Shown here: positions 26,783 through 41,428 of the stretch, one piece after another
How the letters are laid out: each line of letters opens with the position of its first letter
Numbering within the stretch: the first letter of the stretch is position 1
NCBI GenBank assembly: GCA_022394775.1
Contig: JAGFCB010000030.1
Coordinates: 18,852-82,851, forward strand
Length of the DNA stretch: 64,000 nt
From: Candidatus Poribacteria bacterium
GTDB taxonomy: Bacteria > Poribacteria > WGA-4E > WGA-3G
Reading direction: 5' to 3'
Made by a program: the position numbers and the translations under genes
The notes under the pieces: model-generated
What the model was told of the DNA's origin: nothing
What the model saw: the letters and a program-made list of their open reading frames with translations, nothing else
Database searches by the model: none

Positions 26783-27568
26783 ATGAAGTTAATCGCGATT
26801 GGCAGTGCGATTTTACTCTTTACACTCTCGGCATCCGCGGGTACATTTCTGGAAGATTTTGATAATAACTTCGGTGTATGGCAAGAACTTCTCATGGCTG
26901 ATGCGGTGCCGGGTTCTTGGGAGATCGTTGCGGGTGAACTTCACGCGGTAAGTCCAGATGGCTGGACCCGTTTCCTCACGGTTGGCGATGAGACGTGGCG
27001 AGATTACACCTTTGAATTTGATGTCAAACCGCTTGATAATCGAGGTCCCAGCAATATTGTTATTACCGCCCGCATCAAAGGGAGTTGGGGTGTATGGTGC
27101 CTCATCGGCGATTTGCCATTTGTTGACAACATCTCCGAAGTTAAGTTTGCTGCTGGCAATTTTCGGGACCCAAATACGTTCTTATTTTCGCATAGCAAAC
27201 GCTTTCGATTTTTGAAATTAAACAGATGGTCGAAGCTAAAGTTGGAAGTAAAAAAAGACATCCTAAACTTTTGGATTAATGGAAATCTGGTTATTGGACC
27301 TGTGCAACTACCAAACCGTAGAAGTTTTGAGCGTTTTGATGCTATCAGAAAAGAGCATGCCGCTAAAGAAGGGCGGGAATTGGCAGCACTGCAGCTGAAC
27401 GGGCTTCAAGACTTTTTGACAGGCGCCGCGGGCTTAGGGCTCGCAAATCAAACAGCGAGATTCGACAATGTAGTGATCACCGGCGACAGTATCCCGAACA
27501 GGGATGGGTTGTTAGTAAACCCCAGGACGAAACTGACTACGATGTGGGGCAACCTAAAGCGTTTTTAG
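26783..27568 (+). CDS. secreted LamG/DUF1080-like jelly-roll protein with a conserved C-terminal tail, embedded between gspE and gspF
   Basis: Signal peptide MKLIAIGSAILLFTLSASA; W...SWEIVAGELH...WRDYTFEFDVK resembles the DUF1080 layout. Ends ...VNPRTKLTTMWGNLKRF. Confidence 0.7.
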   Translation: MKLIAIGSAILLFTLSASAGTFLEDFDNNFGVWQELLMADAVPGSWEIVAGELHAVSPDGWTRFLTVGDETWRDYTFEFDVKPLDNRGPSNIVITARIKGSWGVWCLIGDLPFVDNISEVKFAAGNFRDPNTFLFSHSKRFRFLKLNRWSKLKLEVKKDILNFWINGNLVIGPVQLPNRRSFERFDAIRKEHAAKEGRELAALQLNGLQDFLTGAAGLGLANQTARFDNVVITGDSIPNRDGLLVNPRTKLTTMWGNLKRF

Positions 27569-27606
27569 TCTATACTTATGGTTCTATATTGTGACGGGGG
27601 TTGATT

Positions 27607-28833
27607 GTGCCGTTATTCCGATATGAAGCACTCACACATAGTGGCGGTAGTGTGAAAAACACACTGGAAGCAGACTCTAAAGCCGAGCTCATCTCTCGGT
27701 TACGGCAGATGGGTTATTGGCCCACGGATATTGTTGAGGAGACAGAGGAAGATGCCTCAAACGATGTTCGCAAATGGCTTAAAATCGGCAGTGGCGGTGT
27801 TAAAGCGGCAGACGTTGAGTTCTTCACGTATCAATTGGCGACGCTGGTGAATGCTCACGTCCCACTACCTCGTGCTTTAGAGGTCACTCTCAGTCAGATC
27901 CAGAACCCAGCACTCAACCGTATCGTCTCTCAAGTGAAATATGATGTTGAACACGGTGCAACTTTTAACGATGCGCTGACACAACACCCAAAGGCATTTT
28001 CCGACCTCTATATTAATATGGTAAAAGCCGGAGAGAGTGGTGGTGTCTTGGGTTTAGTCCTCGAGCGGCTTGCCGAATTTGCGGAACGCCAAAGACTTCT
28101 AAAAAACGATGTTATCTCAGCACTTTTTTATCCTATTATTCTGTTGACGCTCAGCGTTTCAGCTGTAGCGGTACTCATGATTCTTGTAATACCAAAATTC
28201 ACGGCGATGTTCAATGATCTCGGGGTCGCATTGCCGATGCCAACACGCATCCTCATTGGTGCAACCGATGCCTTCCAAACCTACTGGTGGGTCGGGCTAC
28301 TCGCCATCATCTTAGGTGTGGCTGGGCTAAGGCAATATCTCCGGCTCGAAGCAGGCAAAGTCTGGTTTGACCGGTTGAAACTCAAAATACCACTTATCGG
28401 ACCAATAATCAGCACGTTTGCGATTGTCCGTTTTACGCGAACGATGGCAACACTTTTGGAAAATGGCGTACGGATGCTGCCTGCCCTCCAGGTCGTCAAA
28501 GATACGATAGGCAACAAGGTATACAGCAACGTGATCGCCGAAGCGGAAGTAGAGGTTGAGCAAGGTTCTACGCTCTCTCGCGAGCTGAGCAAAAGTAAGG
28601 ATTTTCCTGAGTTCGTCACGCACATGGTGGCTGTTGGCGAGGAGTCAGGTGAACCTGTCCACATGCTCGGTAAACTTTCAGAATACTATGATGTAGAAAT
28701 AAAAAAGAGCCTCGAACGGCTAACCAGCTCGATCGGTCCTCTTGTCATTCTACTGATGGGAGTGATTATCGGTTTCATCGCAGTAGCGATGATTCTTCCG
28801 ATCTTCGAGGCGAATCAATTACTAAGCGGTTAA
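27607..28833 (+). CDS. gspF: type II secretion inner-membrane platform protein
   Basis: PLFRYEAL start, two T2SSF repeats and three TM segments. The GTG at 27607 is better spaced from the GGGGG run than the TTG at 27601. Confidence 0.9.
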   Translation: MPLFRYEALTHSGGSVKNTLEADSKAELISRLRQMGYWPTDIVEETEEDASNDVRKWLKIGSGGVKAADVEFFTYQLATLVNAHVPLPRALEVTLSQIQNPALNRIVSQVKYDVEHGATFNDALTQHPKAFSDLYINMVKAGESGGVLGLVLERLAEFAERQRLLKNDVISALFYPIILLTLSVSAVAVLMILVIPKFTAMFNDLGVALPMPTRILIGATDAFQTYWWVGLLAIILGVAGLRQYLRLEAGKVWFDRLKLKIPLIGPIISTFAIVRFTRTMATLLENGVRMLPALQVVKDTIGNKVYSNVIAEAEVEVEQGSTLSRELSKSKDFPEFVTHMVAVGEESGEPVHMLGKLSEYYDVEIKKSLERLTSSIGPLVILLMGVIIGFIAVAMILPIFEANQLLSG

Positions 28834-28895
28834 TATGTATCTTAGGTGCAAAACGCGCCTTACGATGTTATATAATAACACAGGAGTAGACTTAA

Positions 28896-29351
28896 ATGTT
28901 CAAGCAACTAAAATCCGATGAATCCGGATTAACGCTAATTGAACTGACGATTGTTATTGTTATTTTGGGGATTTTAGCAGCCTTTATTGCCCCGCGGGTC
29001 ATGAATGCCCCGCAAAAAGCAAATGTTGCGAAGGCTCAAACAGAGATTGGCGGTCTGAAAACGGCATTAGAACAATATAATTTGGCAACAGGCGAATATC
29101 CGACAACCGAACAAGGATTAAACGCCTTGTGGCGTGCGCCGAGTCCTGCGCCAGCAAACTGGGATGGTCCGTATATCGGTAGCCCGAATTTTGTAGATCC
29201 GTGGGGTAATGCCTACGTCTATCGCCATCCGGGTACCCATTATGGTTACGACTATGATCTTTATTCAATGGGTAAAGATGGTAAGGTTGGGGGTACCGAG
29301 TTGGATGCGGACATCACGAATTGGGTTGAAGAATCAACCGCAGTGTATTAA
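28896..29351 (+). CDS. gspG: major pseudopilin
   Basis: Prepilin leader ...ESG/LTLIELTIVIVILGILAA. The GspG signature is present: KAQTEI..L..AL..Y, DGPYI, DPWGNAYVY, YSMGKDGKVGG. Confidence 0.9.
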   Translation: MFKQLKSDESGLTLIELTIVIVILGILAAFIAPRVMNAPQKANVAKAQTEIGGLKTALEQYNLATGEYPTTEQGLNALWRAPSPAPANWDGPYIGSPNFVDPWGNAYVYRHPGTHYGYDYDLYSMGKDGKVGGTELDADITNWVEESTAVY

Positions 29352-40255: not shown

Positions 40256-40397
40256 TGGTTCAAAGCCATTCAGTTTTCGGTTTTCAGGTATTTTCAGGGA
40301 CGGATCGCGAGCACAACTCGCTCCTACAGCGGAGTGCTTACGCGATAAATCGAAATTATGTGACAATTGAATGACTCCGGTAGTGGTTTAAAATGTA

Positions 40398-40426
40398 TTG
40401 ACTTCAATTTGCTTTTAAGATATATT
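40398..40426 (+). promoter_or_regulatory. sigma70-type promoter (TTGACT-17-TATATT)
   Basis: TTGACT at 40398-40403 and TATATT at 40421-40426. Confidence 0.5.
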
Positions 40427-40549
40427 ACATATCAGGTCAAATTGGGTCGCTCGTTGTCTTTCTGACAACGCTTTTAACAAGAATTGGAATGGCATCTTAA
40501 CGTGCCATCCGAAAAATAACTAACATATTGATGACAACCAAAAGGAGAT

Positions 40550-41428
40550 ATGCACATCATGAGAAAATTCTATTTTAGTATAGCCCTTGTGGCTATTTTC
40601 AGTTTTGCATCTATAGTTTCAGCTAACGATTTGGCTTTTTATTCAGGTCCGACCAACCCTGGTTGGATTTCTGATGCCGCTGTTGCGAAGAATGTCAAAG
40701 CTATTAAAGATGATCCGGGGGTCAAATCCCTGTTTGAAAACATTGATGATTTTGGAGACGGTGACGAAGTAGGTGACAATTCCCCACTCGCTAAATGGAC
40801 CAAGGAACATACCGATAACGGGCAACAAGATGTGATTATTCTGGCTTGTGGCACGTGTCCGAGTGGACTTTATGAGTTCCCGAATAAAGATGCGGATGGC
40901 TCTAATGTTGAGAATTTCGTTGAAGCCGGTAATATCGTCATTAACGTCGCCGACTGGATCTTCTACATGAGTTACGAGGGCGGTGTCCGCAGCCCTAATA
41001 ACGGTCCTACCGGTGCTGCCAATGTCTTTGATATTGACGGACTTAGTTTCGGTGCCCGCGTGGGTGCTATGAAACCGACAGCTCTCGGCAAAAAAGTTAT
41101 GCCGTCAATGAAGGCATTTAACTCTGATCGTCCGTGGCACGTAGAGCAGTTTGATGGTTCTGATTGGGATCTCGTTATTTTCGGGGAAGCCGACAAAAAT
41201 AACGCCGACCCAGCCGTTGCTATTAGCAAGTCTCCGGGTAAAGATGGCACCGGCATGATCGCCGCGATGTGGCAGGCTGCGAAACCTGAATGGCCCGATA
41301 ATCCTGATATTCGTGGTATCGGTGTCGCTGAATTCATCAACAACTGGCTCTCAGAAGAAGCTGAATTTAATGTTGAAGCTAAAAACAAGTTAGCGACAAC
41401 TTGGGGTTCAATCAAGCAGACCCGCTAA
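40550..41428 (+). CDS. secreted hypothetical protein with a conserved C-terminal tail
   Basis: Signal peptide ...FSIALVAIFSFASIVSA. I recognise no domain. Ends ...VEAKNKLATTWGSIKQTR. Confidence 0.7.
   Translation: MHIMRKFYFSIALVAIFSFASIVSANDLAFYSGPTNPGWISDAAVAKNVKAIKDDPGVKSLFENIDDFGDGDEVGDNSPLAKWTKEHTDNGQQDVIILACGTCPSGLYEFPNKDADGSNVENFVEAGNIVINVADWIFYMSYEGGVRSPNNGPTGAANVFDIDGLSFGARVGAMKPTALGKKVMPSMKAFNSDRPWHVEQFDGSDWDLVIFGEADKNNADPAVAISKSPGKDGTGMIAAMWQAAKPEWPDNPDIRGIGVAEFINNWLSEEAEFNVEAKNKLATTWGSIKQTR

Follow-up and report, generated by a model that had tools for sequence, protein, structure and literature searches.

The characterised small C-terminal sorting signals are tripartite, with a signature motif, a transmembrane (TM) helix and a cluster of arginines (10.1101/2023.06.07.544157), and the cargo of two of them, GlyGly-CTERM and MYXO-CTERM, depends on the type II secretion system (T2SS) (10.1101/2023.06.07.544157; PMC3237569). 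C-terminal domains (CTDs) of the kind that belongs to the type IX secretion system (T9SS) occur in Poribacteria, and T9SS structural genes are reported not to have been found there (PMC3909097). Here we analysed 64,000 nucleotides from a Candidatus Poribacteria bacterium (assembly GCA_022394775.1, contig JAGFCB010000030.1, positions 18,852 to 82,851 of the forward strand), a stretch that we call the window as a whole, in which three genes within or beside a T2SS cluster encode proteins, P1, P2 and P3, that end in a common tail of about 20 residues. To our knowledge, the known substrates of the T2SS share no linear motif, and the genes of some of them lie within or beside the gsp cluster. The tail proves to be a Poribacteria-wide, lineage-specific and apparently undescribed C-terminal tag carried by hundreds of unrelated exported proteins.

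The three open reading frames (ORFs) had been pointed out in an earlier note on this DNA, and the translations matched exactly the C-terminal ends that it quoted, which are ...LLVNPRTKLTTMWGNLKRF for P1, ...LSVEPHGKLAVTWATLKQ for P2 and ...FNVEAKNKLATTWGSIKQTR for P3 (Table 1). Common to all three is the pattern V-x-[PA]-x-x-K-L-[AT]-x-x-W-[GA]-x-[LI]-K, located 1-3 residues before the stop codon. In its degenerate DNA form this pattern matched the window three times, against a mean of 0.00 and a maximum of 0 in 100 dinucleotide-preserving shuffles, and in a six-frame translation of the 64-kb window the regular expression K-[LIVM]-x-x-x-W-[GAS]-x-[LIVM]-K found the sites of P1, P2 and P3 only. 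All three N-termini are signal-peptide-like, in agreement with the Sec-type signal peptides that the note had assigned. No NCBIfam family matched P1, P2 or P3 at E<=1, and no Pfam match covered the tail in any of them. Full-text searches for motif strings, and for Poribacteria together with sorting, signal peptide or T2SS, found no description of such a tail in the literature covered. The tail cannot, as the note had said, be assigned to a known sorting signal.

Beyond the window, the tail was found on many other exported proteins. We scanned one genome per GTDB species with the degenerate DNA pattern, which matched at least 119 eight-kb stretches. Among the matches listed, the tail stood 1-12 residues (mostly 1-5) before a stop codon in 103 of the 119 stretches, corresponding to 118 of 135 matches; the other 17 were internal and all from Microbacteriaceae. 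There are at least 103 tail-bearing loci, from about 75 genomes. A Poribacteria label is attached to 100 of the 103 loci among the matches listed, the other three have a Poribacteria-like GC content, and two of these three (L036 and L047) encode homologues of proteins in labelled Poribacteria loci. A looser regular expression revealed 17 further degenerate tails within the loci of the scan. Independently, a 20-position hidden Markov model (HMM) of the tail, run exhaustively on 1.84 billion cluster representatives, identified 245 clusters at E<=1e-3. Of its best 150 matches, 144 have the final Lys 1-7 residues from the C-terminus, and the sole named sample among the clusters was Poribacteria. 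A profile search with the tail region against a word-indexed database of 5.8 billion proteins returned 12 short fragments orthologous to P1-P3; the tool prefers matches of query length, and the result is uninformative on spread. The Microbacteriaceae matches were rejected as tails: they lie 50-130 residues from the stop codon in a conserved protein rich in Ala, Glu and Lys, in loci that average 67% GC. They occupy 16 stretches (L011, L017, L018, L027, L035, L038, L043, L052, L055, L056, L058, L070, L083, L088, L105 and L119).

The proteins that carry the tail are diverse. When signal peptide and tail were stripped from 104 complete tail proteins, among the matches listed, the remaining bodies formed 29 BLAST clusters. 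Laminin_G_3 was the largest family, and CBM9, CBM4_9, DUF3108-like, DUF1080, PD40, Kelch, HmuY and a putative HExxH protease were also represented. Further tail bodies include giant proteins with leucine-rich repeats (LRR) and lamin-tail domains, and HExxH-ankyrin proteins. By a crude heuristic, 98% of tail proteins have a signal-peptide-like N-terminus versus 33% of control ORFs in the same loci, so that the tail is almost confined to signal-peptide proteins, an enrichment that the note had named as a check on its idea. A lipobox was present in just 3 of 101 tail proteins. Tandem arrays of two to four tail paralogues were seen at L029, L109, L111, L118, L013/L076 and L129, in LamG, DUF1080 and CBM9-like families and in one family without a Pfam match that ends ...KLAVSWAQMKKYY; they indicate an active local expansion of tagged cargo. 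One Candidatus Poribacteria protein of 445 residues (P0264 / HIE29117.1) combines a sigma-70 domain of the extracytoplasmic function (ECF) type, a signal-peptide-like hydrophobic segment, a DUF1080-like domain and a terminal tail. It may be a fusion of the sigma/anti-sigma type or else the product of a gene fusion, and its tail would sit on an inner-membrane-anchored protein.

In the window itself, P1 matches PF06439 with 27.2 bits, and its orthologues in Candidatus Poribacteria are annotated as DUF1080. P2 has no Pfam match, and P3 could be assigned to no Pfam family; it is only weakly similar to the middle domain of GH42/GH164 enzymes, which is GATase/flavodoxin-like (Foldseek best E 1.9e-3, TM-score 0.37), and the named ones among its 330 homologues are all from Poribacteria. 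One explanation of the shared tail would be common descent, or else that the genes share a mobile or regulatory element of DNA at their 3' ends, in either case without selection on the peptide. In favour of descent, P1 and P2 proved to be remote relatives with a DUF1080 jelly roll (hhalign probability 84%, 193 columns), and tandem paralogous arrays of tail genes, such as those at L029, L109 and L118, are common. However, P3 is unlike both P1 and P2 outside the tail, as the note had observed: in pairwise BLASTP against either protein the tail alone was significant, and when the profile of the P1 family was compared with that of the P3 family the alignment was confined to the last 24 residues (E 1.9e-6). 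Since tail bodies at large have unrelated folds, in at least 29 unrelated families, and the P1 and P3 profiles align over the tail only, plain paralogy explains the tail as poorly as the note had supposed.

Two further proteins bear on the same point. P0072 and P0076 (499 residues) have a P3 body (70% identity), followed by an internal degenerate tail, EDQLATTWNEIK, in which the K is changed to Q and the G to N, by dockerin repeats and by a T9SS-type CTD. These two proteins show that the tail must be terminal, since it degenerates when another module comes to follow it, and that one body can be fitted with alternative C-terminal modules. The tail is a modular C-terminal unit, independent of the protein body. 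Canonical T9SS type-A-like CTDs (NYPNPFNPETW...GLYFYTLTAGDFSATRKMLIRK) were also seen elsewhere in Poribacteria, at L006 (3278-4870 and 5593-7425) and at L040 (109-1221).

A logo of 118 distinct instances gave the consensus [L/T/F]-[A/P/S]-V-[E/D/S]-[P/A]-x-[G/D]-K-L-[A/T]-[T/V]-T-W-[G/A]-x-[L/I/M]-K, with conservation setting in abruptly about three residues before the Val. The search pattern itself fixed V, [P/A], K, L/F, [A/T], W, [G/A], [L/I/M] and the final K, and the informative positions are those that it left free, namely the two residues before the Val, the E/D, the G/D and the T-T pair. After the final Lys, only 1-5 residues follow in each tail; they are often polar and are enriched in R, K, S and Q, with R and K together accounting for 115 of 372. 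At the invariant V, K and L positions every synonymous codon is in use, and members of the P1 family still share 69% identity in the tail core at a body identity of 45%. Because the synonymous codons are all used and the tail core is better kept than the bodies, selection must act on the peptide and not on the DNA. A DNA element is further contradicted by the fully degenerate codon usage at conserved positions, with six Leu and four Val codons, and by the tail-only mini-ORFs described below, in which the proportion of synonymous differences (pS) far exceeds that of nonsynonymous ones (pN). We regard descent or a DNA element, without selection on the peptide, as effectively refuted. A ribosome-arrest peptide is also unlikely, since the Trp does not stand at a fixed distance from the stop codon (the final Lys is followed by 1-7 residues).

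The tail offers no room for a TM helix. The longest uncharged run in the last 25 residues was 8 in 65 of 101 tail proteins, with a maximum of 13, which bears out the statement of the note that no TM helix is present. Eight uncharged residues separate the two invariant Lys, the core LATTWGxL has a mean Kyte-Doolittle hydropathy of 0.74, and the amphipathic moment is moderate. In AlphaFold2 (AF2) models made with family alignments, residues 241-261 of P1, the tail, had a pLDDT of 33-36 and were detached from a body above 90. The model of P3 (mean pLDDT 79.9, body above 90) likewise has the tail, residues 276-292, at 35-39 and detached from the alpha/beta body. According to these models, the tail is predicted not to pack on its own protein body. 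In sequence, a short variable linker stands between body and tail.

The strict C-terminal position, the dependence on a signal peptide, the many unrelated folds and the restriction to one lineage, together with the constraint on the peptide, the detached conformation and the interchange with another sorting module, lead us to favour, with some confidence, the view that the tail is a C-terminal protein-sorting or anchoring tag of Poribacteria, about 20 residues long and read in trans. Cargo would cross the inner membrane by Sec, and the free tail would then be recognised in trans by a component of the envelope. On binding the tail would probably fold, and its bound form might be a beta-strand or hairpin, or a short amphipathic segment with Trp and Lys. 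Recognition would direct the cargo to the cell envelope or surface, or retain it there, and the cargo so sorted would comprise lectin-like domains, carbohydrate-binding modules (CBMs), propellers, LRR and ankyrin 'eukaryote-like' proteins, proteases and HmuY. For this cargo, the T2SS would be a plausible route across the outer membrane; as the reader of the tail it would be a candidate at most.

The note had gone further, reading the tail as a linear recognition or retention signal of this T2SS, with the tail proteins as its substrates, and describing the tag as genetically linked to the system. The possible readers would be the N-domains of the secretin, the PilM/N-like protein, the 414-aa protein of the cluster or the upstream HEAT protein. 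For this clade the linkage has partial support, with tail genes recurrently embedded in the T2SS cluster. P1 lies inside the operon, with gaps of 24 nt to gspE upstream and 33 nt to gspF downstream, and a lineage with a P1 of only 60% identity has two tail genes in this interval (DUF3352-HEAT-GspE-DUF1080tail-DUF1080tail-GspF). At 87% and at 64% identity, the genes of the secretin, (P2), P3, GT2 and squalene-hopene cyclase (SHC) keep their order. In two relatives the body of P1 is deleted, and an in-frame mini-ORF that consists of the last beta-strand and the tail is kept between gspE and gspF. The two mini-ORFs match positions 27389-27568 of the window, and their deletion junctions differ (L131 and L122/L123). 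Between them pN/pS is 0.13, and against the window the ratio of nonsynonymous to synonymous substitution rates (dN/dS) is ~0.10 at a dS of ~1.4, although part of this divergence may predate the deletions. The mini-ORFs thus persist under purifying selection, and it seems that the T2SS operon retains the tail peptide as such. These are the only true deletions of the P1 body; P0001 was rejected as a P1 remnant, because it is a P1 of full length that a frameshift divides, on an error-prone long-read contig where gspF is split too. The tail proteins moreover have the Sec signal peptides that T2SS substrates need, T9SS structural genes are reported absent from Poribacteria (PMC3909097), which leaves the T2SS as an obvious outer-membrane route, and GlyGly-CTERM and MYXO-CTERM cargo is likewise T2SS-dependent (10.1101/2023.06.07.544157). 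The T2SS could be the export route of tail proteins.

A genetic link to the T2SS in the form that the note proposed is not supported. Homologues of GspE, GspF, GspG or GspD were found in 0 of the 103 tail loci of other Poribacteria genomes (8-kb loci, among the matches listed), even at E 1e-3. Paralogues of P1 (42-47% identity) and of P3 (70%) stand elsewhere in the genome, in unrelated gene contexts. At L120 the secretin lies 5 kb away from P2/P3, with other genes in between, and at L121 no secretin is within 10 kb of them. In the window, P2 starts 112 nt 3' of the secretin and has a promoter-like site of its own at 39466-39494, with 11 of 12 positions matched, and P3 also has a strong one. 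The conserved order takes in the unrelated genes GT2 and SHC, so it may be plain synteny. The tail of the ECF-sigma fusion would stay in the inner membrane, and T2SS substrates are generally recognised in the folded state, without linear motifs. On balance, we consider it unlikely that the tail is read by this T2SS with the tail proteins as its substrates. We hold it just as doubtful that the T2SS, or a co-encoded accessory such as the membrane-anchored HEAT-repeat protein, reads in this tail a linear and transplantable signal for targeting or retention, which would be the first of its kind. If it were so, the view that T2SS substrates lack linear signals would be overturned, and the export of lectin-like and eukaryote-like repeat proteins from Poribacteria toward their sponge hosts would go through a tail read by the T2SS. 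The data, among them the tail on the fusion of ECF sigma, hydrophobic segment and DUF1080 that would stay in the inner membrane, fit non-covalent docking or retention at least as well as a role as T2SS signal.

The tail might also be a functional peptide rather than a targeting signal: a degron for periplasmic proteolysis or quality control, an element of oligomerisation or strand exchange, or a Trp/Lys segment that binds a ligand or a membrane. A short, moderately amphipathic peptide with a Trp and flanking Lys, disordered in isolation, would suit such roles, and the conserved tail-only mini-ORFs, which lack a signal peptide, hint at a function independent of cargo. However, sorting tags are classically marked by just such features: a signal peptide and an extreme C-terminal position are strictly required, the cargo is very diverse, and a T9SS-type CTD can stand in for the tail. 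A degron on hundreds of stable-looking extracytoplasmic domains, better conserved than the domains themselves, is hard to rationalise. A functional peptide of this kind seems to us quite improbable, less probable still than a T2SS signal.

Several points weigh against a sorting or anchoring tag as well. All small C-terminal sorting signals characterised so far have a TM helix, which the tail does not, so that there is no direct mechanistic precedent for it. A partner or processing enzyme was not found: recurrent neighbours of tail genes were only PhyH, GFO/IDH/MocA, sulfatase, ECF sigma factors and propellers, and no intramembrane protease or sorting-enzyme candidate was among them, in a survey confined to gene neighbourhoods that turned up expanded metabolic families alone. 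AF2 gives the tail a low-confidence helix, which makes its bound conformation a guess. Signal peptides were scored by the heuristic instead of SignalP, and the 2-4 tails counted per genome are lower bounds.

Table 1. Features of the window and tail mini-ORFs of relatives (positions refer to the window unless a locus is given)
Feature	Position	Strand	Description
P1	26783..27568	+	Sec-exported DUF1080 / 3-keto-disaccharide-hydrolase-like jelly-roll protein with tail; from ORF and translation
P1 tail core	27515..27559	+	VNPRTKLTTMWGNLK, followed by RF (2 residues) and the stop codon
P2	39530..40255	+	Exported protein with remote DUF1080-like fold and tail
P2 tail core	40205..40249	+	VEPHGKLAVTWATLK, followed by Q (1 residue) and the stop codon
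P3	40550..41428	+	Exported alpha/beta protein with tail
P3 tail core	41372..41416	+	VEAKNKLATTWGSIK, followed by QTR (3 residues) and the stop codon
T2SS cluster	24972..39418	+	Pfam T2SSE, T2SSF, T2SSG, N_methyl, T2SSK, PilM_2/PilN, Secretin_N, Secretin
GspE	24972-26759	+	Pfam
GspF	27601-28833	+	Pfam
GspG	28896-29351	+	Pfam
Three N-methyl pseudopilins	29358-30059, 30092-30529, 30530-31480	+	Pfam
GspK	31493-33022	+	Pfam
PilM/N-like fusion	33105-34910	+	Pfam
414-aa protein	35111-36355	+	No assigned family; within T2SS cluster
Secretin	36494-39418	+	Pfam
551-aa protein and HEAT-repeat protein	21802..24680	+	551-aa protein is DUF3352 in relatives; HEAT-repeat protein at 23439-24680, HEAT_2 116.8 bits
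Mini-ORF	L131 10001-10165		54 aa; with original ribosome-binding site and first signal-peptide codons
Mini-ORF	L122 963-1142 (= L123)		59 aa; without original ribosome-binding site and signal-peptide start
Sodium:solute symporter (PF00474), split	20063-20659, 20689-21759		Two ORFs
Ankyrin-repeat protein	5958-7259		
WD40 protein	17132-19072		
FGE-sulfatase	10427-11383		
PhyH dioxygenase	1015-1851		
Squalene-hopene cyclase	42291-44030		
YhgA-like transposase	12740-13867		

Among window ORFs of at least 150 residues, Pfam revealed no homologue of GspC or of the prepilin peptidase GspO. Upstream of gspE, the genes of the DUF3352-type and HEAT proteins overlap by 19 nt, and the HEAT protein has an N-terminal hydrophobic segment. 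The order DUF3352-HEAT-GspE, with the two genes directly upstream of gspE, occurs in L127, L130 and L131 as well, and for T2SS-associated genes they are unusual. As a speculative suggestion, the two proteins may be candidates for a T2SS accessory or a receptor of the tail. The sodium:solute symporter, split in the window, is a single gene of 526-565 residues in L130 and L131; the split reflects either a frameshift, a pseudogene or a sequencing error. The ankyrin-repeat protein, the WD40 protein, the FGE-sulfatase, the PhyH dioxygenase and the squalene-hopene cyclase represent typical Poribacteria content.

C-terminal sorting tags define whole surface proteomes and have led repeatedly to new machineries, such as sortase, exosortase, rhombosortase and the T9SS. 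The present tail marks at least 245 protein clusters in an uncultured phylum of ecologically dominant sponge symbionts. Because it has neither a TM helix nor a known reader, an envelope-sorting mechanism that has escaped recognition probably exists in these bacteria. Among the tagged proteins are the candidates for interaction with the host, namely LRR, ankyrin, Kelch/PD40 and lectin-like proteins, and the tag would permit the exported interaction proteome of Poribacteria to be listed from sequence alone. A 20-position HMM would in addition improve the annotation of hundreds of 'hypothetical proteins'.

How does the tail compare with other C-terminal signals? Two known types were rejected. Substrates of the type I secretion system have no Sec signal peptide, in contrast to the 98% of tail proteins with a signal-peptide-like N-terminus, and the encapsulation peptides of bacterial microcompartments are terminal amphipathic helices on cytoplasmic microcompartment enzymes, not on exported lectins, CBMs and repeat proteins with signal peptides. 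With the beta-signal of outer-membrane proteins and with donor-strand motifs, the tail shares a short C-terminal segment and an alternation of small and hydrophobic residues, and the P1 family ends in Phe. Unlike these, it is attached to soluble jelly rolls, propellers and alpha/beta domains instead of beta-barrels or pilins, and in families other than that of P1 the last residue is not conserved as an aromatic one. With classical T2SS substrates, tail proteins share Sec-dependent export, and the genes of P1, P2 and P3 lie within or beside the gsp cluster; here, however, the linear motif is strict, and most tail genes are not linked to a T2SS.

Closer likenesses are found among the tripartite signals. 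Like PEP-CTERM/exosortase, GlyGly-CTERM/rhombosortase, MYXO-CTERM/myxosortase and LPXTG/sortase, the tail is found at the extreme C-terminus, with a short signature; its end is enriched in basic residues, but less clearly forms a basic cluster. As with these, its proteins have an N-terminal signal peptide and belong to many unrelated families within one lineage, with lectin, CBM, protease or repeat-protein cargo. It differs in having no hydrophobic segment long enough for a TM helix, and no invariant Cys, Gly-Gly or PEP motif. The T9SS CTD (TIGR04183 / Por_Secre_tail, type A) is a folded Ig-like (immunoglobulin-like) domain of about 90 residues with the motifs NYPNPFNPETW and GVYFY...RKMLIRK. 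The tail, with about 20 residues unstructured in AF2, is far shorter, as the earlier note had remarked; the two have no detectable sequence similarity, and the tail does not match TIGR04183 or PF18962, the models of such CTDs, which are beta-sandwiches of about 70-100 residues often matched by FlgD_ig as well. The idea that the tail represents the last strands of a T9SS CTD, or the 'AAYWDGRN' motif, was rejected, as only one or two positions coincide by eye. Nevertheless, both are C-terminal tags that depend on a signal peptide, carried by similar cargo in the same phylum, and in P0072 and P0076 the one has taken the place of the other on the same protein body.

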